Source: Chloroflexota bacterium
Lineage (GTDB): Bacteria > Chloroflexota > UBA11872 > UBA12225
Direction: 5' to 3'
Length of the DNA: 64,000 nucleotides
NCBI GenBank assembly: GCA_030447525.1
Contig: JAUJOR010000016.1
Span: 6,785 to 70,784, forward strand
The notes below the pieces were generated by a model that saw nothing but the letters and a program-made list of their open reading frames with translations, was not told the origin of the DNA and made no database searches. The position numbers were made by a program, and so were the translations under genes. Below are positions 43,215 to 59,955 of this stretch, one piece after another; within the stretch, counting starts at the first letter, position 1; each line of letters starts with the position of its first letter.

Positions 43215-43223
43215 CTCTACCTC

Positions 43224-43796
43224 TTATGTACGCTCGCTGAAGTCGAGGTGGATGCGACTCGCCGTGGGCTCGTCCTGCCCCTGATACTTGCTGCCTAGGG
43301 GTTGCGACCCATAGGGGCGTTCAGCCGGCGTGGTCATCTCCAGAAAAGAAAGCTGGCCGATCTTCATGCGCGGGTAGAGCTGGATGGGGAGGGAAGCGGC
43401 GTTACTCAGCTCCAGTGTCAAGTGGCCACGGAAGCCGGGGTCGACGTATCCAGCCGTGGAATGGATCACCAGCCCCAGCCGTCCCAGCGAGCTCTTCCCC
43501 TCAAGCCGGCCCACAACGTCGTCCGGGAGAGTGACTTCCTCCCAGGTGTTCCCCAGGCAGAACTGGCCGGGCTGGAGGACGAAAGCCTCACCGTCCCCAA
43601 CTGTGACCAGCTCCGTGAGATCCGGCTGCTCCCGCCGCGGGTCGATGTGCGTGTACCGCGTGCTGCGGAAGATGCGAAAGCGTCGATCGAGCCGGATGTC
43701 AATGCTGGACGGCTGGATGGCCAGGGCATCGAACGGCTCGACGCGCAGGCGCCCAGCCTCGATCAGTTCACGGATCGTGCGATCGCTGAGCACCAT
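43224..43796 (-). CDS. dcd: dCTP deaminase
   Basis: [45 protein letters not shown]. Confidence 0.96.
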
Positions 43797-44306
43797 CGCC
43801 AGTGGCTCCCCTGCCCCCGACGGGAGTATACCGCCTGTCTTCATCGAGGCTCTCTTCGGAGGGGCGCCGGCGTGTGTCCGGGGGCAGTGGCGCGGATGAC
43901 GTCTCGTGCCCGGCGTCTGGATCGCCATGCGTTCCCCAGGGACACCGCGGCGCCGGTGTCTGGCAGGAGGTCCGCCATGCCAGGTGAGACGCTGGAGGTC
44001 CTGCAACGTACGGCCGCTGATCCAGGGCTTGGTAGCTTGCTGGCGCAGTGGAACCGCCGTCCATATACTTCGCGTAACACTGCTGTGAAGAAGATGGACC
44101 TGCGCGGGCAAACGGCGTGCCGACACACCCCAGCCGCTGTCTTCGGATCGATCTTCGTGGGGCAGGGCTGGCCCGTCGCCCGCGCTGGCCTTGAAGTGGC
44201 CGGAGTGGCCGGGCTCTCACCGGGCTGCCACTTCGAGGCTGGAATCGCCGGCGCGCCGTATCCGAGGCGTCGCCGGGCCTGGCCCCCAGCACGTCTCGAT
44301 GGGCTA

Positions 44307-44335
44307 TTGCTCTATAGGTTAGATGTCGATATACT
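44307..44335 (+). promoter_or_regulatory. Putative sigma70 promoter of the carbohydrate-uptake operon
   Basis: TTGCTC-N17-TATACT in a locally AT-rich patch. Confidence 0.6.
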
Positions 44336-44342
44336 GGCCCCA

Positions 44343-44362
44343 GGCACGCCAATTGGCGTGCC
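44343..44362. promoter_or_regulatory. Perfect 20-bp palindrome, candidate operator
   Basis: GGCACGCCAATTGGCGTGCC, 7 bp after the -10 box. Confidence 0.5.
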
Positions 44363-44483
44363 CTTTGTACAGGGCATGTGGTGACCGGCCCTAGGGCCGG
44401 CTAGGGCCGGCAGGGAGATCGCCGGCGGAGTAGCCGGTGTGGCGCGCAAAGGCTGCAACGACCGCTGTGTCAGGAGACAGTGC

Positions 44484-47400
44484 ATGAGCTGGATGACCAC
44501 TCCACATTTGCCCGGCGTCCCGCGCCACCAGACTCCCCGCCCGACGGGCTGGGCCTGCAGGAGGCGCGCCCTACGTTGGTCACAGCAGGCGATGGCCGCG
44601 CTGCTGGTCGCCGGAATGCTCCTCCCTGCCTTTCCCCTCCCGGCGGCGGCCGGATCGCTCGATCAGGCGCCGGTGGGCGGCGCCGGGGCCGCCGGTGGGG
44701 CGCCGGCGGCCGGCATAGGGGTAGGGGCCGCCGGGAGCGCGGCAGCTCCCACCAGCGCGGGGGCGGCCGGGGCGCAGCCGGCCCCCGTACAGCCGGCCCC
44801 CGTACAGCAGGTCACCGCGCAGCAGGCGCAGGGCGACCGGCAGCAAAGGCCGATAGAGGAGCTCACCCCCGAGGATCTGTTCGGCCAGCCCATCTACGCC
44901 GACGTCAAGGCCGAATGGGACAAGCAGTTCAAGCCGGTCAGCGCCGGCGTGGAGGTGCGGATCCCGGCCGCCGACTACAGCGCCGCCGGCGGGAATGAGG
45001 GTCTGCAAGTAGTAGACAACTTCCAGGGCAAGGCCGGGCGGACGCTGCTGTGGACGATCGACGACGGCTGGGTGGAGTGGGATGTCACCGTTCCCGAGAC
45101 CGGGCTCTACGAGATCACGGTGGACTACTACCCCATCCCCGGCAAGCGCGCCTCGGTGCAGCGCGACCTCTTGATCGATGGGGAGCTGCCCTTCCGGGAA
45201 GCGAAGCGGGTCGTCTTCCAGCGTGTCTGGAAGGACGCTTACTGGCCCCCGAAGCAAGACAATCAGGGGCAGGACATCCGTCCACCTCAGGTAGAGGCCC
45301 CGCAGTGGGAAACCAAGACCATCGAGGACGCGGATGGGCGCTATGACGCCCCCTTCCAGTTCGCCTTTACTGCCGGGGCGCACAAGCTGCGCCTGCAGAC
45401 GGTGCGGGAGACCGTCGCACTGCACACCATCACCCTCCACACCCCGCGGGTAATCCCCACCTACCAGGAGCGCCTGGCGGAGTGGCGGGCCAAGGGGTAC
45501 AAGGAAGTCACCGGCAACAAGATCTCCAGGGTCGAGGCCGAGAACATCTACCTCAAGGCCGACCCCACCATCCGCGGCGAGGTCAACTTCGACGCCCTGG
45601 CCTCCCCTAACGCCAATGGGGTGTTCCGCCTGAACTCGTTTGGTTGGTGGCGCTGGCGCCTGCCGGGCCAATGGGCGCGCTGGAAAGTCACCGTCCCGGA
45701 GGACGGCCTGTATCAGATCAGCATGGACGTCTGGCAGGGCTGGGCCGGGCGCCGGCCCCGAATTCGCACCCTGCGCATCGATGGCGAGGTGCCCTTCCGG
45801 GAGATGCGCAACATCCTGTTTCGCAGCGACCGTCTGTGGCGCCTGGAGACAATGCGCCAGGACCAGCTGCCCGAAGGAGAGCCCTATCTCTTCTATCTCA
45901 GCAAGGGCGAACACATCCTGCAGATGGAAGTCACCCTGGGGTTCATGTCTGAGACGCAGCGGGTGCTGGATCAGACGCTCGGCGAGATGAGCGCCATGAA
46001 CCGGGAAATGCTCATGATCACGGGGGCCAACCCGGACCGGAACATGGATTGGGACCTGCACGAGAAGATCCCCACCCTTGTCCCGCGCCTGCGGTCGATC
46101 GTCGAGCGCCTAGAGACGCAGGCGACGCGCATGGAGGAGATTGGCAAGTCGCGCAACGACGCCTCTGCCGCCTTCCGCGTCGTGGTCGACCAGGTGCAAC
46201 GAATGGTCAATCAGCCGGCGGACATCCATCGCCTGCTAGACGACTTCACTCGCAGCCAGGGCATCCTGGCGGCGCAGATCGTCGCTCTCCAGAACCATCC
46301 GCTGGCGGTGGAGTGGTTCGCCGTGCACTCCCCTGACGCCAAGCTCCCGCGGGTGCAGGCCAACGTGGTGGAGCAGACCATAGCGTCCACCAGGACGTTC
46401 ATCATGTCCTTCTTCCGTGACTACACCGGCCTGGGGAGCAGCTACGGCAAGAACGAGAAGCCCCTGGAAGTGTGGGTCGGTCGGGGCTCCGAATGGGGCC
46501 AGATCATGAAGGATATGGCGGAGGATGACTTCACACCGGCCACGGGCATCAAGGTTAACCTCCACGTCATCCCGCCGGCCAACCTCGGAGAGGGCGCCGG
46601 CTCCGTGCTCCTGCTGGCTGCAACGGCCGGGGAAGCCCCCGACGTGGCCGTCGGCGTCCCTTCGCAGCTCCCGGTGGACTTCGCCGTACGCAAGGGACTG
46701 GTCAACCTGAACGAGTTCCCGGACTACGCCCAGGTGGCGGAGCGCTTCCGGCCGGGCGCCCTGGTGCCCTTCCGCTACAAGGTCCCGTTCACGAATCAGG
46801 TGGGGGACTGGGCGCTGCCGGAGACGCAGGACTTCGCCATGCTCTTCTATCGCACGGATGTGCTGACCGAGCTGGATATCAAGCCCCCGGACACGTGGGA
46901 GGACTTGTATGACGCCCTGCTCAAGCTGCAGCAAAATGGCCTGGACTTCTACTACCCGCCGCCGACCGGCGTGGCGGTGACCGAGGGGGCCGTGGGGTTC
47001 ACCCCCTTCCTGTTCCAGAACGGGGGCGACTACTACACCTGTGACGCTGAGGGGTCGTGCAAGTCGTCGCTGAACACTCCCGAGGCCCTGGCCGGCTTCC
47101 AGGAGTGGACGGAGCTCTATAGCAATTACAAGATCCCCCGCGAGGCTAACTTCTTTACCCGCATGCGCACGGGTGAGCAGCCCATCGGCGTCTCAAACTA
47201 CTTTGTGTACATCCAGCTCTCCACGGCGGCCCCGGAGCTGACTGGGCGCTGGGAAATGCGCCCCATGCCGGGGCACCGCTGCGGGTCAGTCAACAACACC
47301 ACGGGGATGATGATCCCCTGCCCCCCGGGTGAGCAGCCCGGCACCGTCATCCGCACCAGCGGGGGCACCGGCCAGGCGGTGGTCATCTTTAACCAGAGCA

Positions 47401-47789
47401 CGCAGAAAGACGCCTCGTGGGAGTTTCTCAAGTGGTGGACGTCCAAGGACGCCCAGCAGCGCTTCGGCGGTGAGCTGGAGGCGCTGATCGGGGTTGAGGC
47501 GCGCTGGAACACGGCCAACCTGGAAGCCCTGCAGGCCCTGCCGTGGCCCCGCCGCGATATCGCCTCCATCTTGGAACAGTGGCGCTGGTTCCGGGAGCCC
47601 CCGGTGGTCTTGGGAGGCTACTTCACCGGCCGTCACGTCCTGAACGCCTGGAACCGCGTGGTGCTGCAGGGGGTCAATCCCCGCGAGTCCTTGGAGGATG
47701 CCATCTTCGACATCAACAAGGAGCTGGCCAAGAAGCAGGAGGAGTTCGGGATCAAGGTTGATCCCTCTATGTACCGGCGCGGAGGCTGA
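44484..47789 (+). CDS. Very large extracellular solute-binding protein (family 1 SBP domain with N-terminal CBM-like beta-sandwich repeats)
   Basis: Signal peptide ...LLPAFPLPAAA; two repeats WVEWDVTVPETGLYEI / WARWKVTVPEDGLYQI; C-terminal FTPATGIKVN, APDVA, LFYRTD, PDTWEDL, SWEFLKWW; SD AGGAG before ATG 44484. Confidence 0.9.
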   Translation: MSWMTTPHLPGVPRHQTPRPTGWACRRRALRWSQQAMAALLVAGMLLPAFPLPAAAGSLDQAPVGGAGAAGGAPAAGIGVGAAGSAAAPTSAGAAGAQPAPVQPAPVQQVTAQQAQGDRQQRPIEELTPEDLFGQPIYADVKAEWDKQFKPVSAGVEVRIPAADYSAAGGNEGLQVVDNFQGKAGRTLLWTIDDGWVEWDVTVPETGLYEITVDYYPIPGKRASVQRDLLIDGELPFREAKRVVFQRVWKDAYWPPKQDNQGQDIRPPQVEAPQWETKTIEDADGRYDAPFQFAFTAGAHKLRLQTVRETVALHTITLHTPRVIPTYQERLAEWRAKGYKEVTGNKISRVEAENIYLKADPTIRGEVNFDALASPNANGVFRLNSFGWWRWRLPGQWARWKVTVPEDGLYQISMDVWQGWAGRRPRIRTLRIDGEVPFREMRNILFRSDRLWRLETMRQDQLPEGEPYLFYLSKGEHILQMEVTLGFMSETQRVLDQTLGEMSAMNREMLMITGANPDRNMDWDLHEKIPTLVPRLRSIVERLETQATRMEEIGKSRNDASAAFRVVVDQVQRMVNQPADIHRLLDDFTRSQGILAAQIVALQNHPLAVEWFAVHSPDAKLPRVQANVVEQTIASTRTFIMSFFRDYTGLGSSYGKNEKPLEVWVGRGSEWGQIMKDMAEDDFTPATGIKVNLHVIPPANLGEGAGSVLLLAATAGEAPDVAVGVPSQLPVDFAVRKGLVNLNEFPDYAQVAERFRPGALVPFRYKVPFTNQVGDWALPETQDFAMLFYRTDVLTELDIKPPDTWEDLYDALLKLQQNGLDFYYPPPTGVAVTEGAVGFTPFLFQNGGDYYTCDAEGSCKSSLNTPEALAGFQEWTELYSNYKIPREANFFTRMRTGEQPIGVSNYFVYIQLSTAAPELTGRWEMRPMPGHRCGSVNNTTGMMIPCPPGEQPGTVIRTSGGTGQAVVIFNQSTQKDASWEFLKWWTSKDAQQRFGGELEALIGVEARWNTANLEALQALPWPRRDIASILEQWRWFREPPVVLGGYFTGRHVLNAWNRVVLQGVNPRESLEDAIFDINKELAKKQEEFGIKVDPSMYRRGG

Positions 47790-47960
47790 GGCCAGCCGTG
47801 CCTGTGGGGCGGGTCAGCCGGCGGGTGTGTCCCCCGTCGCTCTGGCCCGCTCCCTACTCGGTCATGACCCTGTAGTGGTGAACTCAGCAGGCGACACCGG
47901 GAAGTAGGGCCAGTGTCGCCGCTGCCGGCGACGGCAAGCGCATAAGGAGGATGTGAACAA

Positions 47961-48917
47961 ATGGCTACCCGACCAGAAGTATTTGTCCCAGCAAGGGCAA
48001 TACCGGCTCCCCACGCGCGCCGCTCTCCGCTGAGCGCCTTCTGGTACCGATGGGGTGTCTACTACCTCTTCATGGCCCCCTTCATGACCATGTTCACCGT
48101 CTTCATCATCGCCCCCGTGCTGGTGGCCATCTACCTATCATTCACCTACTTCAACGTCCTGGAGGCACCGCGCTGGATCGGGTGGAGCAACTACAAGCTC
48201 TTGTTTCTTGAGGACGACGTCTTTATCACGGCCATCGCCAATACCCTGACATTTGCCGTGATCACTGGTCCGGTCGGCTTCTTTATCTCCTTTTTCTTTG
48301 CCTGGTTGATCAACCCGCTGAAGGCCAAGACCGTCCTGGCTTTGTGTTTCTACGCGCCCTCTATCGTGGGCGGCATCGCCATGAGCGTGGTATGGAAGAT
48401 CGTGTTCTCCGGCGACCGCTATGGCTACTTGAACAACTATCTGCTCAATATCGGGGCCATCGACGAGCCGTACCAGTTTCTCTCCGAGCAGGCGTCGATC
48501 ATGCCGGTGATCATGTTCGTTTCCTTGTGGATGGGCATGGGCACCGGGTTCCTGGTGTTCCTCGCCGGCCTGCAGACGGTGAATACCGACCTGTATGAGG
48601 CAGGCAAAGTGGACGGCATCTCCAATCCACTACAGGAGGTGTGGTACATCACCCTGCCGTCGATGAAGCCCCAGCTCCTGTTCGGCTCGGTCATGGCCGT
48701 TGTCGCGGGGTTCTCGGTATTTGAGGTGGCTACGGCGCTGGCCGGCCTACCTAGCCCCTTGTATGCCGGGCACACCATTGTGTCTCACCTGTATGACTAC
48801 GCCTTTATTCGGTTTGAGATGGGCTATGCGGCCACTGTGGCTGTGATTCTGTTTCTCTGGACCTTCGGCCTGGGCCGGCTCCTGTTCCGGATCTTCTCGT
48901 CCAAGAACGAGTACTAG
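47961..48917 (+). CDS. Carbohydrate ABC permease (MalF/UgpA-type)
   Basis: LSFTYFN, IGWSNY, FLAGLQ...LYEAGKVDG (EAA loop), ITLPSMKP. Confidence 0.95.
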   Translation: MATRPEVFVPARAIPAPHARRSPLSAFWYRWGVYYLFMAPFMTMFTVFIIAPVLVAIYLSFTYFNVLEAPRWIGWSNYKLLFLEDDVFITAIANTLTFAVITGPVGFFISFFFAWLINPLKAKTVLALCFYAPSIVGGIAMSVVWKIVFSGDRYGYLNNYLLNIGAIDEPYQFLSEQASIMPVIMFVSLWMGMGTGFLVFLAGLQTVNTDLYEAGKVDGISNPLQEVWYITLPSMKPQLLFGSVMAVVAGFSVFEVATALAGLPSPLYAGHTIVSHLYDYAFIRFEMGYAATVAVILFLWTFGLGRLLFRIFSSKNEY

Positions 48918-49034
48918 CTGGATGCGTGCTATGTTGGGGTTTGACGTGACTATCCCGGTGTGCGGTTCGACAGAAGGATCGGTGATGACGTCTGCGGGCT
49001 TGCGTCCTGGCGTGCATCCTAAGGAGGGTTTGTA

Positions 49035-49940
49035 ATGGCAGTGCTGGCCCGCCCCCGCTCGGTGCCGCGCGTCCCGGTGCTCTTCGGGAGGCGTATCCGG
49101 ATACAGTGGCCTTCGGCACAGTATTTCTTGTTGGTGCCGCTGGCGGTGTTCGCCGTGTTGCCCATCGTGTACGTCATATCCACGGCGTTTAAGCCCCTGG
49201 AAGAGCTGCTGATATTTCCGCCACCCTTCTTCGTCCGTCGGCCCACGATGGACAACTTCCAGGACTTGCTGCTAGCGACGAACGCCCTGGCCGTGCCATT
49301 CTCGCGCTACCTGTTCAACAGCGTCTTCGTCACGCTGACCACGGTGCTCCTACAAGTATTGATCTGCTCGATGTGCGCCTACCCACTGTCTAAGGCGCGG
49401 GGGCTGCCGGGCGCGAACATCGTCTTCGCCATGATTATCGCCGCCTTGATGTTTGCCCCCCAGGTGACCCGCATCCCGCAGTACCTGGTGGTGCAGAAGC
49501 TGGGCATGATCGATACCTATTGGGCCCTGATCGTCCCGGCCCTGGCGTACTCGTACGGACTGTTCATGATGAAGCAGTTCATGGATAACTCGGTAGATAT
49601 GGCGCTGATCGAGGCGGCGCGGATTGATGGGGCGAACGAGTGGACGATCTTCTGGCGGGTGGTGATGCCAAACGTCGCCCCGGCGTGGAACACGCTGCTC
49701 ATCTTCGGCTTTATCCAGCAATGGAACGACTCGTTCAGCCCGCTGGTATTCACGCGCAGCGAGGCGATGAAGACGGTCTCGGTGGCCATGATCTCCCTTA
49801 CCAACGGGCCGGCGACGGTGGCCCGCCTGGGGGCGCAGTCGGCGGCGGCATTCCTGATGACCGCCCCGACCATCATCGTCTTCTTGCTGCGGCAGGCGAA
49901 GGTGATCCAGACCATGGCCCACTCCGGGATCAAGGCCTAG
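49035..49940 (+). CDS. Carbohydrate ABC permease (MalG/UgpE-type)
   Basis: STAFKP, YLFNS, LIEAARIDGA, QWND. Confidence 0.95.
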   Translation: MAVLARPRSVPRVPVLFGRRIRIQWPSAQYFLLVPLAVFAVLPIVYVISTAFKPLEELLIFPPPFFVRRPTMDNFQDLLLATNALAVPFSRYLFNSVFVTLTTVLLQVLICSMCAYPLSKARGLPGANIVFAMIIAALMFAPQVTRIPQYLVVQKLGMIDTYWALIVPALAYSYGLFMMKQFMDNSVDMALIEAARIDGANEWTIFWRVVMPNVAPAWNTLLIFGFIQQWNDSFSPLVFTRSEAMKTVSVAMISLTNGPATVARLGAQSAAAFLMTAPTIIVFLLRQAKVIQTMAHSGIKA

Positions 49941-50090
49941 GCGGGCGCCGCTGCATCAGTCGGCAGTGAGCGGCCGTCCGTGGCACGGGGCCTGGCATGG
50001 CCCGGCGGGGTGAGGTGGTGAGGGATCTAGCAGGAATGGCTGGCCAGGCAGGCAGGCGGATTAGGTAGGGACAACGTGTTGAAGGAGGCG

Positions 50091-51596
50091 ATGATGGCGG
50101 TCGACACAGCGCGGTTCGGCCGGCGGGGCGTCGGTCGTGACCCGAGAGGCTGGCTGCGCGCCGGTGCGGCTGCGCTGCTCTCCCTTAGCTTGATGGTGAC
50201 CACGGTAGCCACGGCCAGCGCTGATCGGGAGTATTCCTGGACGCTGGACAAGGACGGGCAGCAGCTGCGGTCTCCGATGCCATACATCTACGACTTCGAG
50301 GTCGATGGGATGTACAAGCCTTCGGGGACATTCAAGAACCCGGCCGATATCTTCATCGACAAGGAGTACAACGTCTGGATCGCCGACACCGGGAACAACC
50401 GCCTGCTGAAGTTCGACGAGCGGGGGAACTATCTACGGGAGTTCGGTACGGCAGAAGATGAAGGGAAGCTGAACGCCCCGGAAGGGATCTACGTCACCGA
50501 GCGCGGTGACATCTGGGTGGCCGACCGTGGTAACGGGCGGATCGTGCAGTACGCCCCGGACGGGACGTTCTTAAAAGCCCTGGGGAAGCCCCGCTCCCGG
50601 CTGCTGGAAGAGGACCAGGTCTACCAGCCGAACAAGCTGGTGATCGACCGACGGGGCTATATCTACGTCCTGAACGGCGGGGGAGATTACCGCGGGATCT
50701 TCCTGCTGGACTCCGAGGGTGAGTTCCGCGGCTTCTTTGGCGCCAACCGGCTCAGCTTCAACCTGGCGCGCCTGCTCGTGCGGTCATTCACCACGGACGC
50801 GCAGAAGAAGCAGATCTCCAAGGTGCTGCCGACGCACCACGCCAATCTCTTCGTCGATCCGCGGGGCTTCATCTACACCGTTTCGCCCCTGTCCCAGCAA
50901 GATCAGATCAAGAAGCTGAACTCAGTTGGGAACAACGTCTACACCACGAGCGCGAAGGCCTTTGGCGAGCGCGAGCGACGCGGGACGCAGATCGTCAACC
51001 CGCAGTTTGTGGACGTGACGGTAGACGAGCAGGGAATTGTCTCCGCCCTGGACTTCAACAGCGGGCGGATCTACCAGTATGATCAGTCGGCGAATCTCCT
51101 GGCCATCTTCGGCGGCCGGGGAGCCCAGCGGGGCCGGTTCGAGCTCCCGCAGAGCCTGGCCGTAGGGCGCGAAGGACGTATCTTCGTCCTGGACGCAAAC
51201 CGCAATAACATCCAGATTTTCCGGCCCACGGAGTTTGCCAATCTCCTGCACGACGGGAGCAAGCTCTACTTCGACGGCAAGTACAACGAGGCGGCCACGA
51301 TCTGGGAGGAAGTCCTGCGGCGTAACAGCTTCTACGAGCTGGCCCATACGGGCCTGGGCAAGTCGTTCTTCAAGCGCGGTGACTACGTCACGGCGATGGA
51401 GGAATACAAGATCGCGCGGAACAAGGACGGTTACTCACAGGCATTCGGTGAGTGGCGCCACGACTTCCTGCGTGAGAACTTCGGCTGGCTGTTGCCGATG
51501 GTGATCTTTGCCATCTGGGTATTAACCACGGTGATCTCCCGTACGATGAAGCGCGTGATGAGCATGAAGCTTGAGACGGAGGGGGGACCAGCATGA
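50091..51596 (+). CDS. Secreted NHL-repeat beta-propeller protein with TPR and C-terminal TM anchor
   Basis: Signal peptide; FKNPADI...IADTGNNR, LNAPEGI...VADRGNGR repeats; TPR-like EAATIWEEVL...AHTGLGK; C-terminal TM. Confidence 0.9.
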   Translation: MMAVDTARFGRRGVGRDPRGWLRAGAAALLSLSLMVTTVATASADREYSWTLDKDGQQLRSPMPYIYDFEVDGMYKPSGTFKNPADIFIDKEYNVWIADTGNNRLLKFDERGNYLREFGTAEDEGKLNAPEGIYVTERGDIWVADRGNGRIVQYAPDGTFLKALGKPRSRLLEEDQVYQPNKLVIDRRGYIYVLNGGGDYRGIFLLDSEGEFRGFFGANRLSFNLARLLVRSFTTDAQKKQISKVLPTHHANLFVDPRGFIYTVSPLSQQDQIKKLNSVGNNVYTTSAKAFGERERRGTQIVNPQFVDVTVDEQGIVSALDFNSGRIYQYDQSANLLAIFGGRGAQRGRFELPQSLAVGREGRIFVLDANRNNIQIFRPTEFANLLHDGSKLYFDGKYNEAATIWEEVLRRNSFYELAHTGLGKSFFKRGDYVTAMEEYKIARNKDGYSQAFGEWRHDFLRENFGWLLPMVIFAIWVLTTVISRTMKRVMSMKLETEGGPA

Positions 51597-52426
51597 CCGC
51601 CCGCTCGATTCCGGCCGTTGCTACTCCGGCGGTACCGCGCCGACGTGTAGCGCGCCCTGGTGCGGGACGCGCCGGGACGGCGGCGCGCTGGCGTGCCGCC
51701 GCCGGGCGTGTGCGGTGGTACCTGACCAAGTGGTTCCGCCAGATGCTGTTCGTCCTGACGCATCCGACTGAGGCGTTCTGGGAGCTGAAGCGCACGGGAG
51801 ACTGGGCGTCCGTTGCCTTCCTGGTGTTCCTGGCGGTCATGGCGCGCATGTTGCTCATGAGCTTCATGAGCTTCCACTACATCTTCCAAGGCGTGGAGCG
51901 GACGAAGTGGAATCTCGAACGCGTCATGCAGCAGTTCACCGCCACGATGACGCTGGGCATGACCAACTTCATCTACAACGGTAACCCAGAGGACACCTCG
52001 GTCATCCAGGAGGCCCTGCGCATCTTGATCCCCTTCGTGACCTGGTGCCTGGCGCACTACGCCATCGCCATGATCTTTTACGGTGAAGGGGGCCTGCGCG
52101 ACATTATGGTGTCGGCCGCCTTTTCCCTTTCCCCTTACATTTTCTTCTCCTGGCCGGCGTCTCTGATCCTGACCAACGTGACCACCCTGGCGGAGCGTTC
52201 GCTGTACTTTAGTATCAGTTGGCTGGTCAACTTGTGGGTCTTCTACTTATTCTTGACCCATATCCGCATCATTCACGACTTTACATTCAAACGCACGGTG
52301 GCAACGTACATCATCTCGCTGATCACGGTAATCATCATCTGGTCGCTGGTGGCTCTGGTGTATGCCCTGACCAGCAACACGTACGAGTTCTTCTACGAGC
52401 TGTTCTACGAGTTGACCACGCGCTAG
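51593..52426 (+). CDS. YIP1-family membrane protein
   Basis: HPTEAFWELK, GEGGLRDI, SLSPYI, IHDFT; 5 TMs; ATGA overlap with the NHL gene. Confidence 0.85.
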   Translation: MTARSIPAVATPAVPRRRVARPGAGRAGTAARWRAAAGRVRWYLTKWFRQMLFVLTHPTEAFWELKRTGDWASVAFLVFLAVMARMLLMSFMSFHYIFQGVERTKWNLERVMQQFTATMTLGMTNFIYNGNPEDTSVIQEALRILIPFVTWCLAHYAIAMIFYGEGGLRDIMVSAAFSLSPYIFFSWPASLILTNVTTLAERSLYFSISWLVNLWVFYLFLTHIRIIHDFTFKRTVATYIISLITVIIIWSLVALVYALTSNTYEFFYELFYELTTR

Positions 52427-52502
52427 GCTGCCGGGTGCTGGGAAAACGCACCGTCGGCTATGAGTTGGGCATAGGCCCCGGAAGATGCAAGGAGTCACGT
52501 CC

Positions 52503-54863
52503 ATGAGGCGTCGGTTGTTGTCGCTGGCGGCGGGTGCCGCCCTGCTCTTCCCGGTAGTGCTGGCCCCCGCCGGGGCCGGCGCAGCCGGGGCGCGGCTTGT
52601 CCCGGCGGCCGGCCCGGCCGCGCCGGCCCCGGCTGCGGCGGGAGCGACGCTCCAGTCTGTCGTGTCCGCGCCGAACCCGCAGGTGCCCGGGGAGTACGAG
52701 CCGGTGGCGGAAACGCCCGGCCTGCGCATGTATGTGAATCGCGCGGACTCGAAGTTGATCGTCGAAGATCGACGCAACGGGAAGTTGTGGTCGAGCAATC
52801 CATTGCGTCCGCTGAGTGACCAGAAGACAATCCTGGACGATGCAGTTTTCCAGCTCAACTACACCAACGCCCGGCGCCAGATGACGAATCTGGCCAGTTC
52901 GGCGTCGGAGAGGCCGGAGCTGTCGTTCCAGAACATCCAGAACGGCGTTCGTGTCATCTATGACATTCAGAAGCTCAAGCTGAAGATCACGGCGGACTAC
53001 TCCTTGAAGGAGGAGCCGCGGGTCGACGGGCAGGGGACGGTGGGCTACCTGGAGGTGACCATTCCGGAAGGTGGGGTGCAGGAAGGGGGCGACTGCTCGT
53101 CGCCGACGAGCACCTCCTGCTTCATGGTGGTGACGTTGGAGCTCTTGCCCCTGTTCGGCGCCGCGCCGATAGGGAGTGAAGGCTACCTGATGGTCCCTGA
53201 CGAGTCCGGGGCTATTGTCACCTTCAAGCCCGAGTACCCTCAATACCGGCAGCGCTACTCGGCCACCATCTACGGGGCCGACGCCGCCGCGCAGGCCTTT
53301 CAGACCGGCTCAGGCAGCACCTTCCGTAACGATCGGCCGCGTATGCCTCTCTGGGGCCTGAAGGAGGGGGACGCCGCCTATGCCGGGATTGTGACCAAGG
53401 GGCAGTTCCAGGCCAACATCAACGGCTACCTGGCCGGATACATCACGAACGCCAATCGCGCTTCGACGGAGTTCATCTTCCGGCGTCAGGCCTCCATCCC
53501 GCGCCGCCGGACGCTGTTCGTCAACCGTATCGAGGACAACCTGATACCCGGCGACCGACAGGTGCGCTACGTCCTGCTGAACGGGGAGGACGCCAACTAC
53601 GCCGGGATGGCCAAGGCGTACCGCGACTACCTCATGAAGTCGCGGGGGATGAAGAAGCTCCCGGATCAGCCGGCACGGCCATTGATCGACCTCTACATGG
53701 GCGCCCTGCGTCGGTCGTCTTTCCGCGATGACTTCCTGCCTATGACCACGTTCGATCAAGGCATCTCCATCATGCAGTCCTTCCTGGATCGGGGGGTCAA
53801 GGACTTTGACGTTCAGCTGATCGGCTGGAATGACGGGGGGGAGCGGGGCTACTGGCCCCGTCGTTACCCCGCAGAGGAGGAGCTCGGCGGCAACGCCGGG
53901 CTACGCCGGCTGACGGATTTCGCCCACAAGAACGGCCTGCGCGTCTACCTCCAGGACAATTACTTGTACGGCTACACGATCTCTTCGGGGGGGATCTTCG
54001 GCCAGATCCCCATCGTGCGTAACATCTGGCCCAACTGGAGCTACGGCTTCAATACCCGCTTCGACACGATGCGCGGGGTGAACAAGCTCCCGGTGTTCTC
54101 AGGTAGCCGCACCGGTGGGAGCACCAATATCGGCTTCTATCTCATCAACCCGATCGTTTCCCGCCAGAGCTACGTCGAGCGGGACTACCCGAAGCACAAG
54201 TCGCTCGGCGCGGACGGCGTCAGTCTGTTGCTGATGGGCACCATCATCGCCTCGGACACCAATGAGCGCTACCCGCTCAGCCGTGAGGGTGTGGCCGAGG
54301 AATGGATGAAGATGGCGGATCGTTCTCGGGAGCTGCTGGGCGGGGCTATCGTCACCGGATCAAACGACTACGTCCTGGGGCGCACAGATCGGGTGTATGA
54401 CGCCCCGGTGGACAGCACGGATGCCTTCGGTGATGTGGCGGTGCCGGTGTACCACATCGCCACTCAGGGCCTGGTCGTACGCAACACGTTCGCCGTGAAT
54501 CTCCGCAACGACCCCAAGACCGAGATCCTGCGACAGATCGAGTGGGGGATGCAGCCAGTGTACATGCTGACTAGCCAGCCCACGGCCGACCTTATCCGTA
54601 CCGGCTTCAATCGCCTCTACAGCGGCGAGGCTTCGGAATGGCTCGAGCCCGCGGCCAACGAATACAAGCAGATGCGTGATGAGTTCGGGTACCTCAGCGG
54701 GAAGTTCATCACCAACCATGAGATCCTTGCCCCGCGCGTCAATCGCGTAACCTACGAAGACGGCTCACAGGTGACCGTGAACTACAACCCCGTGCCGTAC
54801 GAAGGCCCCGGTGGACGGGTCGATGCCTTTGGATACACCCTCCGCAAGGGCGGCGGTCGCTGA
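52503..54863 (+). CDS. DUF5696-like secreted protein
   Basis: Signal MRRRLLSLAAG...; WSSNP, LLPLFGA, GYLMVPDESGA, YAGMAKAYR, MTTFDQ, GWNDGG, LGG..GL, HEIL...V..VTYEDG...VNY. Confidence 0.8.
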   Translation: MRRRLLSLAAGAALLFPVVLAPAGAGAAGARLVPAAGPAAPAPAAAGATLQSVVSAPNPQVPGEYEPVAETPGLRMYVNRADSKLIVEDRRNGKLWSSNPLRPLSDQKTILDDAVFQLNYTNARRQMTNLASSASERPELSFQNIQNGVRVIYDIQKLKLKITADYSLKEEPRVDGQGTVGYLEVTIPEGGVQEGGDCSSPTSTSCFMVVTLELLPLFGAAPIGSEGYLMVPDESGAIVTFKPEYPQYRQRYSATIYGADAAAQAFQTGSGSTFRNDRPRMPLWGLKEGDAAYAGIVTKGQFQANINGYLAGYITNANRASTEFIFRRQASIPRRRTLFVNRIEDNLIPGDRQVRYVLLNGEDANYAGMAKAYRDYLMKSRGMKKLPDQPARPLIDLYMGALRRSSFRDDFLPMTTFDQGISIMQSFLDRGVKDFDVQLIGWNDGGERGYWPRRYPAEEELGGNAGLRRLTDFAHKNGLRVYLQDNYLYGYTISSGGIFGQIPIVRNIWPNWSYGFNTRFDTMRGVNKLPVFSGSRTGGSTNIGFYLINPIVSRQSYVERDYPKHKSLGADGVSLLLMGTIIASDTNERYPLSREGVAEEWMKMADRSRELLGGAIVTGSNDYVLGRTDRVYDAPVDSTDAFGDVAVPVYHIATQGLVVRNTFAVNLRNDPKTEILRQIEWGMQPVYMLTSQPTADLIRTGFNRLYSGEASEWLEPAANEYKQMRDEFGYLSGKFITNHEILAPRVNRVTYEDGSQVTVNYNPVPYEGPGGRVDAFGYTLRKGGGR

Positions 54864-54896
54864 GCTCGGGATACTGCGAGGAGGACACATATAGTC

Positions 54897-55859
54897 ATGA
54901 AGATGCGCGTTACCCGCAAGGAACCGCAGCTTGCCGTGGCCGGCGCCGGCGTCGGGGATACGGCCGCGACGGCGCCGGTGCGGCGCCGTCGCCGGATGAC
55001 ACTGAGCGTCCAGCGGACGCTCGAGGGATACTTCTTCGTCTCCCCCTGGGTGCTCGGCTTCATCGTCTTTCTGGCCTGGCCCTTGTTCCAGAGCTTCTTC
55101 CTGAGCTTTCACGAGCTCCAGGCCACCTCCCTGAGCGATCTGAAATTCCGGGGCATTGACAACTACAAAGAAGCATTCTTTATCGATGCCCGCTTCTTAC
55201 CCCGGCTGAGGGACACCCTGCAGCAGAATCTGCTCGACGTTCCGGTGATCATGATCTTCAGTCTTTTCAGCGCCATCCTGGCCAACCAGAAGATCAAGGG
55301 GGTGATGGGCTTCCGGGCCGTTTTCTTCCTGCCCCTGGTGATTGGCTCGGCCCAGGTGATCCAGCAGCTCTTCAGCCAGGGTGTGGGTGGCGCCGTCCTC
55401 AGCCGGGGAGTGAACGTTCAGGAGCTAGCCTTCCAGTACCTGGGACCGGACGCCGCATCCGGTGTCGAGCAGTTGCTCAACCGGCTACTGTTCGTGCTCT
55501 GGAAGACGGGCGTGCAGATGCTGATCTTTCTGGCCGGGTTGAATAGCGTCTCCCCAGTACTCTATGAGGCGGCGCGCGTTGATGGCGCCACCGACTGGGA
55601 CCGGTTCTGGAAGGTAACGCTGCCCCTCTTGTCACCGGTCATTCTCGTGAACCTCGTCTACACTATCGTCGACTCCTTCACGGACACGTTCAACCAGGTA
55701 CTGCAGTACATCCAGCAGACGGCCTTTGCCGGGGGCTTCCGCCTTGGATACGCCGCCTCCCTTGGCTGGATCTACTTCGCCATCGTGTTCATCATCCTCG
55801 CCACCGTCGTGCGAGTCACAAACCGCTACGTCTTCTATGCCGGCGAACGGAACTCGTAG
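54897..55859 (+). CDS. Carbohydrate ABC permease (MalF-type)
   Basis: GYFFVSPW, FRAVFFLP, FLAGL...LYEAARVDGA, VTLPLLSP. Confidence 0.95.
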   Translation: MKMRVTRKEPQLAVAGAGVGDTAATAPVRRRRRMTLSVQRTLEGYFFVSPWVLGFIVFLAWPLFQSFFLSFHELQATSLSDLKFRGIDNYKEAFFIDARFLPRLRDTLQQNLLDVPVIMIFSLFSAILANQKIKGVMGFRAVFFLPLVIGSAQVIQQLFSQGVGGAVLSRGVNVQELAFQYLGPDAASGVEQLLNRLLFVLWKTGVQMLIFLAGLNSVSPVLYEAARVDGATDWDRFWKVTLPLLSPVILVNLVYTIVDSFTDTFNQVLQYIQQTAFAGGFRLGYAASLGWIYFAIVFIILATVVRVTNRYVFYAGERNS

Positions 55860-55889
55860 GACCCCGCAGCGCATCTTGGAGGTAACGCT

Positions 55890-56831
55890 ATGGCAGTCGT
55901 TTCCCAACAGTGGGTCCAGCGTCGTCCGGTCTGGCTGCGGGACACCCAGGTGTTCCGCCGGCGCGCGGTTACGTTTATCCAGCGTGCCTTTACGTATATC
56001 GTGCTCATCGATATCGCCTTCGTCTTCCTCGTCCCGATCTTCTACATCCTGGCCACATCCCTCAAGACAGCCCAGGACTTGACTGATCCGACCATCGTCT
56101 GGATCCCCTCCGGGTTCTTCTGGATCAACTACCCCCTGGCCTTCCTGGCCATGAACTACCCTCGGTCCCTATCTAACAGCCTGTGGATCTCATTAGGTTC
56201 GGCCTTTGGGCAAACGGTCAGCTGCGCCTTCGTCGGCTATGGCTTCGCCCGGATTCGCTTTCCTGGGCGCGACCTACTCTTTGCCCTCGTCCTTTTCACC
56301 TTCCTCGTCCCACCACAGACGATCATTGTCCCTTTGTTCATTCTGTACAAGAACCTGGGGTGGATCAACTCCTATAACCCGTTCATCGTCCCTAGCTTCT
56401 TCGGTCATGGTCTGAAGGGCGCCTTGTTCGTGGTCGTGTTCCGCCAGTTCTTCAAGACCCAGCCCTGGGAGCTCGAGGAAGCGGCCCGCATCGACGGGGC
56501 CTCCGCCTTCGCCACCTGGTGGCGCATCATGCTCCCCATGTCCACGGCGGCCATCGTCGTCGTCTTCCTCTTCAGCGTGGTGTGGCACTGGAACGACTTT
56601 TTCGAGCCTTTCATCTACCTGAACCGCATGGAGCATTTCACCCTGCCCATGCGCCTCTCGGTGCTCTCCCCTTCATTGGATCAAGTGACCGGCGGACAAG
56701 CGGGTGACCTGTTCAACGAGGCGCTGGTGATGGCCGCCGTCTTCCTGGTGATCCTTCCGCCCCTGGCGATCTACATGTTCACCCAGCGCTTCTTCGTGGA
56801 GTCGATCGACCGTACTGGCCTGGTGGAGTGA
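55890..56831 (+). CDS. Carbohydrate ABC permease (MalG-type)
   Basis: GYGFAR..FPGR, ELEEAARIDGA, WHWNDF, QRFFVES. Confidence 0.95.
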   Translation: MAVVSQQWVQRRPVWLRDTQVFRRRAVTFIQRAFTYIVLIDIAFVFLVPIFYILATSLKTAQDLTDPTIVWIPSGFFWINYPLAFLAMNYPRSLSNSLWISLGSAFGQTVSCAFVGYGFARIRFPGRDLLFALVLFTFLVPPQTIIVPLFILYKNLGWINSYNPFIVPSFFGHGLKGALFVVVFRQFFKTQPWELEEAARIDGASAFATWWRIMLPMSTAAIVVVFLFSVVWHWNDFFEPFIYLNRMEHFTLPMRLSVLSPSLDQVTGGQAGDLFNEALVMAAVFLVILPPLAIYMFTQRFFVESIDRTGLVE

Positions 56832-56871
56832 TCCCGGACCGGTAGCAAAACTCCAGGTCCTGGTCCCAAGT

Positions 56872-56907
56872 ATCGACTTCTCAGAGATCCACCTCTGAGA
56901 AGTCGAT
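56872..56907. terminator. 15-bp perfect hairpin after the ABC operon (possible terminator or processing stem)
   Basis: ATCGACTTCTCAGAG-atccac-CTCTGAGAAGTCGAT; no clear U-tract. Confidence 0.5.
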
Positions 56908-57499
56908 CATCAAGGCCCGCGCAGGGGCGCGATAGCAACTAACAGGTGCGGCCGTCAGCCCCTCTGTGATGAGAGGAGGGGCCGCCGGCCGCACCTGTGT
57001 GGCGATCGTAGAAGGGGAGAGGGACTTGACCTGGTCCAGGCCGTCCCGTGGCTCTGCGATCGCCTGGCTGCAGGCGGGCGACGGGGCCTCTCCTGCCTGC
57101 AGCCAGGCGATGGGGCCTATATGAACGCCTCGCCTGCCATCTGCAGATGGATGGGCCGTGTTGACCCGAGCTGTATGGCTGCGCCCCACCCCCGGCCGGG
57201 TACAACCCCCTGCCGGGTACAACCCGCTATAACCCCCGGAGCGTCGCACTAGTGCGACTGACGCAGGACGTCAGGCTTGCGGGTGGCGATCAGGACCGGC
57301 AGACAGCTCCCATCACCGGGCCATCGGCATGGCTTCACTCGCTCCCCCTGGGAGGAAGCTACCCAACAGGTTCACCGTAGTCACGCCCCACCGGGTAACG
57401 CACCTGAGCCGGCAACGGATCGGAGATAGGACCTGATCATCAGGCATACAGCGGTTCCGTTGCCTCCAGGTGCGACCGGCATGATCCCGGCATGACCCG

Positions 57500-58036
57500 C
57501 TAGCAGTTGATCGTCGGGCTAGGTGCGGCTGTCTGCCCTCCGGGCGTTGTCGCGCCGGCTACGGTGGGGCTGCGCACCGCCCCCAGGGCCGGGCTGGGCG
57601 TTGCGGTACAACGCGGCGTGGCCGTCGCGGCCGCGCCCACGGTGGGGACCTGCGCTGTGGTGGGCGACGCAGGGGCCTGCGCCGCCGGTGCAGCGACCGT
57701 TGCCTGCGAAGCGAGCGTGGGCCCGGGCGCCGCCGGCGCTTGCCTTACCGCGGTCGCGGCCGCCGGCGCCGCCCCGCCCGTGATAGGGGCCGCCGTGGTG
57801 GGCGCGGCCGCCGAGCGGGTCGGCGCACCCGCCAGGGCCCCTGCCGTGGGTGATGGCCGACCTGCATCCACGGCCACGTTTACGTCTGTGGGGCGCGACC
57901 CCGCGCGACTGGCCAGCAGTCCGATCAGCCCCAACAACAGCACGGCGGCGATGCCGCCCAGCGTGTAGATCGTCATGCGGCGCCGGCGCGCCTCGGGAGA
58001 CTCCCCAGTGGGTGGATTGACGTTGATTTGACTCAT
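57500..58036 (-). CDS. Hypothetical membrane-anchored Ala/Pro/Thr-rich protein
   Basis: SD-like GAGGGA then MSQINV; RRRR followed by a TM and a low-complexity tail containing two Cys. Confidence 0.65.
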   Translation of the reverse strand: MSQINVNPPTGESPEARRRRMTIYTLGGIAAVLLLGLIGLLASRAGSRPTDVNVAVDAGRPSPTAGALAGAPTRSAAAPTTAAPITGGAAPAAATAVRQAPAAPGPTLASQATVAAPAAQAPASPTTAQVPTVGAAATATPRCTATPSPALGAVRSPTVAGATTPGGQTAAPSPTINC

Positions 58037-58897: not shown

Positions 58898-59146
58898 AAC
58901 TGAGCGCGCCCTCCTGGCACCAGGCGTTCAACGCACCGACGACGCGGTGTGGAAGCAACTCGAGGCGCAGGGCAACCTGGCCGGCGCCAGGTTCGACTCC
59001 TTTAAGGCCCGCTACGAGACCGTCAGACGGGGATGAACCGGGTCGAGGCCGGTTCATAGCCGATGGTCGTCAGACCGGCCGTCTCAAGTAGCGGAGACCC
59101 CCGGGGAACTCTTTGTCCGGGCGCTGCTCGATCTGCTGCTGGCGGG

Positions 59147-59887: not shown

Positions 59888-59955
59888 CTTCGCCAGCCCT
59901 CTGACATTGTACCACCGGCTGCCGGGCGCGGGTGGCGTGGAGGGGCCAGGGAGCG

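Follow-up and report, generated by a model that had tools for sequence, protein, structure and literature searches.

A conserved eight-gene operon of Chloroflexota and Firmicutes for a putative dual CUT1-type sugar importer with three accessory envelope proteins

Sugar importers of the CUT1 class (MalEFGK2 type) can draw on a shared orphan ATPase, as in the MsmX/MsiK-type sharing of Gram-positive bacteria, and several binding proteins may feed one translocator, as HisJ and LAO do with HisQMP. The locus described here consists of eight open reading frames, all on the + strand at positions 44484–56831 of the window, a 64,000-nt stretch of contig JAUJOR010000016.1 (Chloroflexota bacterium; assembly GCA_030447525.1); the co-directional eight-gene cluster claimed in the sequence-only reading is borne out. 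The cassette resembles CUT1 importers in its MalF/MalG-type permease pairs with EAA loops and its MalE-fold binding domain, and the ATPase-sharing systems in that a MalK-type ATPase bearing an OB/TOBE tail is encoded outside the locus. Unlike these systems, it fixes two channels in one operon, here without a second binding protein, has a binding protein of 1101 residues that is tethered to the membrane and carries CBM-like modules, and encodes three extra conserved proteins without counterpart in described CUT1 systems. With SusC/SusD of Bacteroidota, of which the sequence-only reading proposed that the cassette may be a monoderm counterpart, a surface machine possibly threading long glycans, it shares the combination of glycan-binding surface modules and an importer, and its Firmicute copies lie in polysaccharide loci; however, neither a TonB-dependent barrel nor a SusD-like protein was found among the eight genes (Pfam), and energy source, membrane, and protein families all differ. 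A literature search found no paper describing the cassette, which seems, as had been supposed, to be undescribed. Our preferred reading, with a probability of roughly 0.55, is that the operon encodes a dual CUT1-type ABC sugar importer together with three fixed accessory envelope proteins, and likely works as a shared gateway.

The first gene (44484–47789) encodes the giant tethered solute-binding protein, which would comprise 1116 residues if translated from an alternative upstream GTG at 44439. In Pfam searches, in which all four families named in the sequence-only reading (SBP_bac_1, NHL, Yip1, and DUF5696) were matched at the locus, the SBP_bac_1 match covers only residues 685–900 (E = 4.5e-19), and the SBP_bac_1/SBP_bac_8 matches are confined to residues 685–1009. 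Hydropathy and termini indicate an N-terminal anchor followed by ~70 low-complexity residues. The AF2 model (pLDDT, 86.9; pTM, 0.82) arranges the chain as a transmembrane helix (residues 23–49), a linker of ~70 residues (disorder at 51–119), two CBM35/6-like β-sandwiches (strands at 157–319 and 347–483), a long-helix region (488–603), and a CUT1-type binding domain. Residues 659–1088 resemble a β-1,2-glucooligosaccharide-binding protein (PDB ID: 5ysb; Z-score, 35.3; root-mean-squared deviation, 2.6 Å; 373 aligned residues), and a profile of the N-terminal tandem matches the CBM35 part of 5x7g (E = 1e-5) as well as 2vzp (E = 0.002) and 2w47 (E = 0.006). As modeled, the binding protein is membrane-tethered, with two CBM35-like modules preceding a MalE-like domain, and the full architecture is preserved in 276 database proteins.

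The four permeases flank the accessory genes as two pairs, P1 (47961–48917) and P2 (49035–49940) upstream, and P3 (54897–55859) and P4 (55890–56831) downstream. All match BPD_transp_1 (Pfam), P1 with 23.4 bits, slightly below the 26.4-bit cut-off, and P2, P3, and P4 with 39.3, 46, and 38.7 bits, respectively. Among NCBIfam models, P1 matches those of UgpA/MalF type (E = 1.7e-20), P2 the GlcU model (E = 1.9e-31), and P4 both GlcU (E = 2.4e-27) and UgpE (E = 1.6e-26). A coupling loop is recognizable in each, as EAG-VDG in P1 and as EAA at residues 193, 224, and 197 of P2, P3, and P4. Judging from these models and motifs, P1/P2 and P3/P4, each pair having a MalF/UgpA-type and a MalG/UgpE-type member, are two complete MalF/MalG-type channels with an EAA-type coupling loop each. 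Because P1 and P3 (28%), like P2 and P4, share an identity of only 26–30%, lower than that of the permeases to their positional Firmicute orthologues (30–51%; P1, 45–51%; P3, 30–40%), the doubling of the pairs is old. No ATPase was detected in the 64-kb window by tblastn with the host genome's own MalK-type ATPase as query (E ≤ 1e-3), as had been claimed, and no ABC ATPase was found among 63 flanking ORFs scanned at 15 loci. The host genome has two orphan OB_MalK (MalK-type) ATPase genes, both amid unrelated genes and away from the cassette, and four complete relatives likewise have their MalK-type gene at a distance of 0.24 to ~1.5 Mb or on a separate contig, which upholds the earlier suggestion that the ATPase is supplied in trans.

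Between the permease pairs, the first accessory gene (50076–51596) encodes an extracytoplasmic NHL propeller (NHL, E = 2.4e-19) with a TPR region (TPR_16, E = 3.6e-5, below its cut-off). Its nearest solved sequences are the PknD-sensor-derived 'Pizza' propellers (E = 4e-42) and PknD itself (1rwi; E = 7.6e-14), and those nearest to residues 394–451 are consensus TPR proteins. An N-terminal signal (residues 29–47) and a C-terminal transmembrane anchor (469–487), followed by a basic tail, are evident from hydropathy and termini. The next gene (51593–52426) encodes a Yip1-family membrane protein of five predicted transmembrane segments (43.2 bits; cut-off, 28.6), with five peaks in its hydropathy profile and an N-terminus rich in Arg; a 14-sequence profile found no solved relative of it. 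The stop codon of the NHL/TPR gene overlaps the Yip1 start codon as ATGA (51593–51596), by which the Yip1 gene is predicted to be translationally coupled, and in all four ORFs tested from Clostridia the two are fused into a single protein. From this gene structure, NHL/TPR and Yip1 are one unit, encoded by overlapping genes here and as a single polypeptide in Clostridia. The basic tail after the transmembrane helix and the Arg-rich Yip1 N-terminus give a topology compatible with the fusion. In Bacillus YknWXYZ, a Yip1-family protein is likewise encoded with an ABC transporter, and YknW is reported to modulate YknXYZ assembly (PMC4887032). However, YknYZ belongs to the MacB-type exporters and has a membrane-fusion protein, whereas in the cassette the partners would be importers of type I, and Yip1, unlike YknW, is tied to an NHL/TPR ectodomain.

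The third accessory gene (52485–54863) encodes a DUF5696 ectoprotein (PF18952, E = 4.1e-132) with an N-terminal signal or anchor followed by a Pro/Ala linker. Its AF2 model (pLDDT, 90.6; pTM, 0.90) consists of a β-sandwich, a TIM barrel, and a C-terminal β domain, the three-domain fold of GH129. Over ~580 residues it superposes on NagBb from Bifidobacterium bifidum (5wzn; Foldseek, 3.7e-29; VIA-align Z-score, 33.9, 578 aligned, root-mean-squared deviation, 3.9), followed by GH129-like DagB from Zobellia galactanivorans (5opq; Foldseek, 2e-30; Z-score, 30.6), the next family reaching a Z-score of 22. Homology is also detectable at the sequence level (family profile against PDB, NagBb E = 2e-17; hhalign against a GH129-like protein of a relative, 99.8%), and because one protein of a relative (L034) scores above the Pfam cut-offs of DUF5696 and Glyco_hydro_129 alike, the two families grade into each other. 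On the basis of this model, the protein is a GH129 homologue with a glycoside-hydrolase fold. It differs from GH129 enzymes in its low identity (~16%), in being anchored or secreted at a monoderm surface, and in being always encoded between two permease pairs. Two independent alignments place the GH129 acid/base column at T624, which holds an acid in just 20 of the 97 family members; the nucleophile column falls at L582 (acidic in 37/97) or G585 (0/97), depending on the alignment, the two being three residues apart in a region of low posterior confidence in the HMMER alignment. Under either alignment, the protein of the window has no acid at either GH129 catalytic position. The earlier statement that the cassette has no recognizable hydrolase thus stands as regards Pfam names alone, because the fold of DUF5696 is that of a glycoside hydrolase, albeit one lacking the GH129 catalytic residues.

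It is conceivable, since D239 (92/97), D591 (90/97), and E686 (96/97) are near-invariant and DagB also requires an Asp of its N-terminal domain (PMC5698469), that the catalytic apparatus of DUF5696 may be shifted. Along this line, the protein could be catalytically active outside the cell, as a glycosidase from a new GH129-related family, trimming captured chains to importable size with its own acids, D239 in the N-terminal domain and D591 after barrel strand 4, while the other components act as in the preferred reading. The complete fold, the bridging protein L034, the further near-invariant residues R333, R380, R600, W448, N672, and H745, suggestive of a kept pocket, and the difference in acid/base residue reported between DagB and NagBb (PMC5698469) are in its favor; we nevertheless consider it doubtful, as the family conserves neither of the GH129 catalytic columns, E686 sits at a helix end ahead of a strand in the AF2 model, an unusual place for a catalytic residue, and most members of the Chloroflexota clade replace H661 (85/97 in the family) with Gln or Asn, few keeping His, and Y666 (87/97) with Arg. 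Moreover, one protein type accompanies fructan, arabinan/xylan, and mannan loci in Firmicutes, and specificity for a single linkage is unlikely because the cassette there adjoins different GH genes. DUF5696 is probably a non-catalytic, glycan-handling subunit. That it is instead a substrate receptor feeding the second permease pair in place of a binding protein, as the sequence-only reading proposed, would suit its non-catalytic appearance, its position 33 nt upstream of P3, and the absence of a binding-protein gene after P4 in the window and in all five Chloroflexota loci with sequence. This role is improbable, however: such a gene lies directly 3' of P4 in five of seven Firmicute loci with sequence and one gene further downstream in another (L014), all six retaining DUF5696; the fold is a GH129 barrel rather than a two-lobed binding protein; and ~129 orphan binding proteins are available as alternative feeders.

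The joint reading of the eight genes has also to be weighed against two independent importers that merely flank unrelated envelope genes. The gaps in the first half of the operon (171, 117, and 135 nt) leave room for internal promoters, the remaining ones being 58, 33, and 30 nt. Gene order is, however, identical in all 18 related loci fetched from Chloroflexota, Paenibacillus, Lachnospiraceae, Oscillospiraceae, and other Clostridia (nine complete; nine broken by contig ends, with the portion present agreeing), so that the clustering, judged by gene order, is far beyond chance. The accessory genes, 24–40% identical in protein sequence across the two phyla, are syntenic with both permease pairs throughout, as the sequence-only reading anticipated; together with the NHL-Yip1 fusions and a DUF5696 gene that, in every relative checked, is single-copy and never found outside the cassette, this makes mere neighborhood the most far-fetched of the readings. 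Very improbable, too, is a cassette devoted mainly to recycling or sensing glycan of the cell's own envelope, the propeller and GH129-like protein acting on wall material. The Chloroflexota copy, single and vertically kept, does have housekeeping genes (dCTP deaminase, IleRS) as neighbors and neither a regulator nor a degradative enzyme nearby, but Firmicute cassettes sit within plant-glycan loci, adjoining GH32, GH43/GH51, or GH26/GH5 genes and AraC-type two-component regulators, and the binding protein carries CBM35-like modules.

Returning to the importer reading, the host genome contains ~139 binding-protein-like ORFs, 129 of which are orphans lying >6 kb from any permease match, as against just four CUT1 permease pairs, of which the cassette supplies two; one 45-kb stretch lacks permeases altogether but holds nine binding-protein genes, six sulfatases, and catabolic genes. 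As with HisJ/LAO and HisQMP, binding proteins outnumber channels and their genes lie beside catabolic genes, but the scale differs, with ~130 binding-protein genes per four CUT1 pairs here and at least 33–43 per two pairs in sister families. In family f2, eight of nine genomes have exactly two MalG-like matches, the cassette P2 and P4, against 33–43 SBP_bac_1 matches, and in family f4 six of nine have two, against at least 41; no such permeases beyond the cassette pairs were found in these genomes. Families without DUF5696 (f5 and f6) have 2–8 MalG-like and 5–10 SBP_bac_1 matches. The cassette alone does not imply a gateway role, because two cassette-bearing genera (g4 and g5) show ordinary ratios (8–16 MalG-like against 18–38 SBP_bac_1 matches). 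All BPD_transp_1 matches number 17 in genome G014 and 16 in G026, and some SBP_bac_1 proteins could partner non-CUT1 permeases. In Firmicutes the cassette lies in loci specific for a substrate and has a second binding protein of its own, which speaks against a gateway.

In the proposed mechanism, the giant binding protein would use its CBM-like modules to catch glycan chains at the surface and would pass oligosaccharides to one of the channels, both powered by a shared ATPase. The Yip1 membrane domain may hold the propeller/TPR ectodomain beside the channels as an assembly scaffold, comparable to YknW, and DUF5696 would bind or position glycan instead of cleaving one particular linkage; for these three helper proteins we infer roles only. 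The eight genes are a widely conserved, unstudied sugar-uptake operon, and the lack of a post-P4 binding protein in the Chloroflexota version, together with the ~130 orphan genes beside catabolic genes in this genome, suggests that its channels likely serve as a shared entry gate for many orphan binding proteins.

The eight genes at 44484–56831 on the forward strand of the window encode, in this order, a giant binding protein, a first permease pair (P1 and P2), an NHL/TPR protein, a Yip1 protein, a DUF5696 protein, and a second permease pair (P3 and P4). The gene-by-gene description in the sequence-only reading proved correct, with eight co-directional open reading frames (ORFs) of the families it had named and no ABC ATPase anywhere in the 64-kb window. 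The giant binding protein (1101 aa, start ATG at 44484, + strand) matches Pfam SBP_bac_1 and SBP_bac_8 only in its last ~430 residues, and P1 and P3 are MalF/UgpA-like and P2 and P4 MalG/UgpE-like in Pfam and NCBIfam. Pfam further assigns NHL repeats and a TPR stretch to the 506-aa NHL/TPR protein, Yip1 to the 277-aa product of the gene directly following it, and DUF5696 (E = 4e-132) to the 792-aa product of 52485–54863 (+). The NHL and Yip1 genes are joined by an ATGA overlap, and the last four genes are spaced by 58, 33, and 30 nt. From hydropathy and termini, the binding protein, the NHL/TPR protein, and the DUF5696 protein are predicted to be extracytoplasmic, the first anchored at its N-terminus, the second anchored at its C-terminus and ending in a basic tail, and the third starting with a signal or anchor.

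The window is GC-rich (~65% around the cluster). A promoter scan of 43900–57600 gave one promoter-like site against 2.7 expected, and a terminator scan of the same region gave ten terminator-like sites against 7.4 ± 3.4 expected, none of them convincing after P4; an Rfam search of 43000–61000 returned a tRNA as the sole match. A search for sequencing runs listed eight DNA runs from three studies of soil and rock metagenomes, with no RNA run among them. The neighbours of the cassette are housekeeping genes, namely a dCTP deaminase gene on the opposite strand upstream (43224–44126, −) and the IleRS gene downstream. Farther upstream lies a gene for an SBP_bac_5 (peptide/oligosaccharide-type) binding protein (40047–41723, −) without adjacent permeases; this gene and that of dCTP deaminase also precede the cassette in two other fetched loci (L002 and L009), and only the SBP_bac_5 gene of the pair was recognised in L005 and L008. 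The ~3.9 kb between the cassette and the IleRS gene (56881–60725) contain several ORFs without a Pfam match and a tRNA-Lys(CTT) gene (59145–59219, −), and in related Chloroflexota loci this interval is occupied by a radical-SAM gene and a DUF1697 gene.

A pattern scan with one genome per species yielded 18 loci encoding a DUF5696 relative, which were annotated by ORF mapping and Pfam after a tblastn search using the eight proteins of the window as queries. The full eight-gene set occurs in identical order in nine of them, four from Chloroflexota (L005, L007, L008, and L009) and five from Firmicutes (L011, L013, L014, L015, and L018); contig ends truncate the remaining nine, the genes still present being in agreement with the cassette order, and no deviating order was found among the 18. 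The accessory genes, which the sequence-only reading expected to stay with the permeases if they form one system, are thus syntenic with them across the 18 loci, favouring a joint system. One locus labelled as Verrucomicrobiota (L010, from a Candidatus Udaeobacter MAG) shows 73–79% DNA identity to the Paenibacillus locus L011 over the cassette and a two-component regulator; its contig was probably mis-binned or recently transferred, and on that identity we grouped it with Paenibacillus and rejected Verrucomicrobiota as a third cassette phylum. Sequence identity between P1 and P3 and between P2 and P4 is only 26–30%, and each permease is nearer to the orthologue that occupies the same position in loci of the other phylum; therefore, the two-channel design is old. 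The DUF5696 gene is single-copy in the source genome (G000), 28 of the 41 related genomes examined encode a protein above the DUF5696 cut-off of Pfam, and an all-against-library search found relatives in 4133 representative clusters (50% identity) at E ≤ 0.001 and in 1281 at E ≤ 1e-30. Within the literature outside subscription journals and supplements, we found no published work on DUF5696 (PF18952), no relevant publication on the combination of NHL and Yip1 with a permease or solute-binding protein, and nothing on orphan solute-binding proteins in Chloroflexi. Altogether, the cassette is a further copy of a widespread variant of the CUT1 importers that is apparently undescribed.

The flanks of the cassette were scanned in 15 loci (63 of 82 candidate ORFs, the omitted 19 being mostly short and from loci otherwise represented, with the seven flank ORFs of L007, up to 737 aa, wholly outside the scan), and none of the 63 ORFs encodes an ABC ATPase. 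The Firmicute cassettes adjoin glycan loci of differing chemistry: three GH32 genes and a sugar kinase gene in a Paenibacillus locus, GH43 and GH51-type arabinofuranosidases in L013, L015, and L018, and GH26 and GH5 enzymes with CBMs in L012. Histidine-kinase and AraC-type regulators are encoded upstream in L010 and L011. A gene for a normal-sized binding protein lies directly 3′ of P4 in five of the seven Firmicute loci that extend this far, and in L014 it is found one gene further on, two of these proteins being identified by BLASTP to the others only. No such ninth gene, glycosidase, or regulator is present in the window or in any of the five Chloroflexota loci with downstream sequence, and the housekeeping flanks are likewise conserved among the Chloroflexota loci.

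Both permease pairs consist of two different MalF/MalG-type subunits with BPD_transp_1 and an EAA coupling loop, as in CUT1 importers (TC 3.A.1.1). P1 scored 3 bits below the Pfam cut-off, yet it matched UgpA with an E-value of 1.7e-20 and has an EAG-VDG loop, and the coupling loop is kept in all four permeases. An ATPase of the MalK/MsmX type with C-terminal OB/TOBE is encoded outside the operon and the window. Two OB_MalK-type genes are found elsewhere in G000, one between cell-shape and nickel-insertion genes and the other between GlmS-like and MutS-like genes, and there is no permease gene within 8 kb of either. The distance between the MalK-type genes and the cassette is 0.24 to ~1.5 Mb in four relatives with complete or near-complete genomes, unless the two are on different contigs. 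Because MalK-type genes are orphans both here and in the relatives and the coupling loops are kept in the four permeases, a shared ATPase acting in trans on the cassette is the simplest reading, and we infer that the two genomic MalK-type ATPases serve it. The cassette thus shares with CUT1 importers its permease pairs, a MalE-like binding protein, and a MalK-type ATPase, uptake itself being predicted from these likenesses. It differs from SusC/SusD in that none of the eight proteins matches a TonB-dependent outer-membrane barrel or a SusD-like lipoprotein in Pfam and NCBIfam.

The AF2 model of the giant binding protein (pLDDT, 86.9) shows, from the N-terminus, a transmembrane helix, a disordered linker of ~70 residues, two β-sandwiches, a region of four long helices, and a MalE-like domain. 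Residues 659–1088 of the model superposed on a β-1,2-glucooligosaccharide-binding protein (PDB ID: 5ysb) with a Z-score of 35.3, in agreement with the MalE-like SBP_bac_1 fold of CUT1 receptors; the whole-model fold search was filled by MalE-like chains and covers the C-terminal part of the protein. The same N-terminal architecture recurs in 276 proteins of the database. CBM35 modules of solved enzymes were matched by a profile built from both sandwiches (E = 1e-5 to 0.006, both repeats), and among the 120 homologues listed, 16 have CBM_35, Golvesin_C, or GH115_C in precomputed Pfam annotation. Pfam gave nothing significant with the N-terminal 672 residues alone, and the Atlas search with residues 125–650 returned same-family fragments only, plus weak GH115_C and CBM_35 leads at 0.76.

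The NHL domain of the NHL/TPR protein (Pfam E = 2.4e-19) matches six-bladed designed propellers derived from PknD (E = 4e-42, four to five matched stretches), and by this sequence likeness the propeller is of the PknD-sensor type; no enzyme family was found among its close solved matches. The next gene product is assigned to Yip1 (PF04893) with 43.2 bits against a cut-off of 28.6 and has five hydropathy peaks, and its profile had no match among solved structures. There is good evidence that the NHL/TPR and Yip1 proteins function as one unit, because the NHL and Yip1 domains are fused in a single ORF of 682–690 aa in four of the four Clostridia loci tested, the two genes abut or overlap in Paenibacillus and Chloroflexota, and the predicted topology of the split form is compatible with that of the fused protein. 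The Yip1-family protein YknW has been reported as a modulator of the assembly of the ABC transporter YknXYZ (PMC4887032), and by this analogy a scaffold role may reasonably be proposed for the NHL/TPR–Yip1 unit.

The DUF5696 protein scored 442 bits against PF18952 (cut-off, 25.6), covering model positions 3–612. The single sequence gave weak hints only when compared with the PDB, and a 97-sequence family profile matched the GH129 enzyme NagBb of Bifidobacterium bifidum (PDB ID: 5wzn; E = 2e-17) and the GH129-like DagB of Zobellia galactanivorans (PDB ID: 5opq; E = ~2e-15). Its AF2 model (pLDDT, 90.6; pTM, 0.90) matches both along the whole length and contains the GH129 domain set, consisting of an N-terminal β-sandwich, a TIM barrel, and a C-terminal β domain. 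Foldseek gave 2e-30 for DagB and 4e-29 for NagBb, and VIA-align gave Z-scores of 33.9 for NagBb (578 residues; rmsd, 3.9 Å) and 30.6 for DagB, with the next chains (GH101, GH36, GH31, and GH13) at ≤ 22. A protein encoded in a related genome (L034 locus) is similar to DagB (E = 9e-54), keeping the YLD nucleophile and the acid/base Glu, and matches the DUF5696 profile with 99.8% probability. Since the profile, the whole-length fold match, and this bridge protein agree, the homology of DUF5696 to GH129 is solid. Two proteins, that of L034:1039–3246 (G007) and that of L035:1557–3521 (G006), exceed the Pfam cut-off of DUF5696 as well as that of Glyco_hydro_129 and, at the level of sequence profiles, link the two Pfam families. 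No additional Pfam domain was found in any of 14 longer DUF5696 homologues (812–1243 aa). Weak profile matches to the 4F2 heavy chain (E = ~0.9) were not significant and were set aside as evidence.

For DagB, Asp202, Asp486, and Glu517 have been described as essential, with Asp435 of NagBb as the counterpart of Asp486 (PMC5698469). In the window protein, this nucleophile (NagBb D435, DagB D486) aligns to G585 by hmmsearch with low posterior confidence, and to L582 by hhalign when bridged through the L034 protein; the L582 column is acidic in 37 of 97 DUF5696 members and the G585 column in none of the 97. The second catalytic residue of NagBb, which we take to be E478 as the counterpart of DagB E517, is the acid/base Glu, and it aligns to T624 in both alignments, in a column that is acidic in 20 of the 97. 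From these alignments, the window protein appears to lack both the nucleophile and the acid/base of GH129. The statement of the sequence-only reading that the cassette holds no recognisable hydrolase needs qualifying, as the DUF5696 protein is a GH129 homologue, though one that appears to have lost the canonical catalytic residues. On the other hand, D239, D591, and E686 are kept in 90–96 of the 97 members, and a number of Arg, Trp, Asn, and His residues are conserved as well. Compared with the family consensus, the Chloroflexota clade of the window protein has Glu at G240 in the closest members, mostly Val or Thr at E651, mostly Gln or Asn at H661, and Arg at Y666 in most members, the latter two positions being conserved elsewhere in the family.

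Three points bear on the role of the protein: its canonical residues are lost, the glycan loci in which it occurs are chemically unrelated to one another, and polar positions are conserved in the family. On balance, we favour a DUF5696 protein that binds or positions glycan, with a probability of about 0.6. Catalysis at a shifted active site, for which a glycosidase-type fold with almost invariant acidic residues could be adduced, is the alternative, and with neither canonical residue in place we regard it as unlikely. The sequence-only reading had let the protein serve the second permease pair, the genes of which follow it directly, and a role as the receptor of that pair is likewise unlikely.

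G000 has 129 SBP_bac_1 matches against only 34 BPD_transp_1 matches. An HMM trained on 20 binding proteins of this genome detected 139 non-overlapping binding-protein-like ORFs, 129 of which are separated from every permease match by more than 6 kb. By tblastn with the four cassette permeases, the number of CUT1-type pairs is only four, and the cassette accounts for two of these. The orphan binding-protein genes are often arrayed beside catabolic genes, for example in the contig regions C29:215000–260000, C3:176–186 kb, C7:62–102 kb, and C27:199–230 kb. The 45-kb C29 stretch (L031–L033) has nine binding-protein genes interleaved with six genes for sulfatases without signal peptides, together with ROK, SDR, ThuA, xylose-isomerase-like TIM, LarA-like, and GntR genes and no permease gene, which suggests that sulfated sugars are taken up and desulfated in the cytoplasm. 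A comparison of the orphan binding proteins with the binding domain of the giant protein and with the second binding protein of Firmicutes was uninformative, as 119 of 138 matched, 79 on one side and 40 on the other, at median scores of just 41–45 bits.

We surveyed 40 relatives, which, being related, are not independent samples. In the cassette-bearing sister family f2 (nine genomes, 91–99% complete), exactly two MalG-like matches were found in eight genomes and one in the fragmented G020, the two being the P2 and P4 of the cassette among the matches listed, and each genome has 33–43 SBP_bac_1 matches. The second such family, f4, has two MalG-like matches in six of nine genomes and three in the other three, with at least 41 SBP_bac_1 matches, scoring being capped at 42, and 77–112 unscored candidates per genome. 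The closed genomes G014 and G026 have 17 and 16 BPD_transp_1 matches in total, four of them in the cassette. Two families without DUF5696 (f5 and f6) have 2–8 MalG-like and 5–10 SBP_bac_1 matches. The genera g4 and g5 carry the cassette, yet have 8–16 MalG-like and 18–38 SBP_bac_1 matches, which counts against a simple link. Many orphan binding proteins probably share the cassette channels in several Chloroflexota lineages. We put forward, as a speculative and rather improbable proposal, that the Chloroflexota cassette is a common sugar gate: dozens to more than 100 interchangeable orphan binding lipoproteins, whose genes adjoin the respective catabolic genes, would dock on the two channels, where the NHL/TPR–Yip1 scaffold and the GH129-derived pseudo-enzyme would organise the traffic of binding proteins and glycans.

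ABC sugar importers are textbook four-part machines, and in the present case two channels are accompanied by three additional proteins, the gene order being constant in bacteria as different as soil Chloroflexota, Paenibacillus, and gut Lachnospiraceae. If the trio belongs to the transporter, models of plant and host glycan uptake by monoderm bacteria miss a component. If 33 to more than 100 binding proteins have no sugar-type channels other than those of the cassette, the cassette would be a clean natural system for studying translocator sharing and would allow carbohydrate uptake to be addressed genetically through one locus in a phylum that is poorly cultured. Should the shared gate be real, the trio would represent a new class of ABC importer accessory complex, with a loose parallel in eukaryotic heteromeric amino-acid transporters, the heavy chain of which resembles a glycosidase but is inactive.
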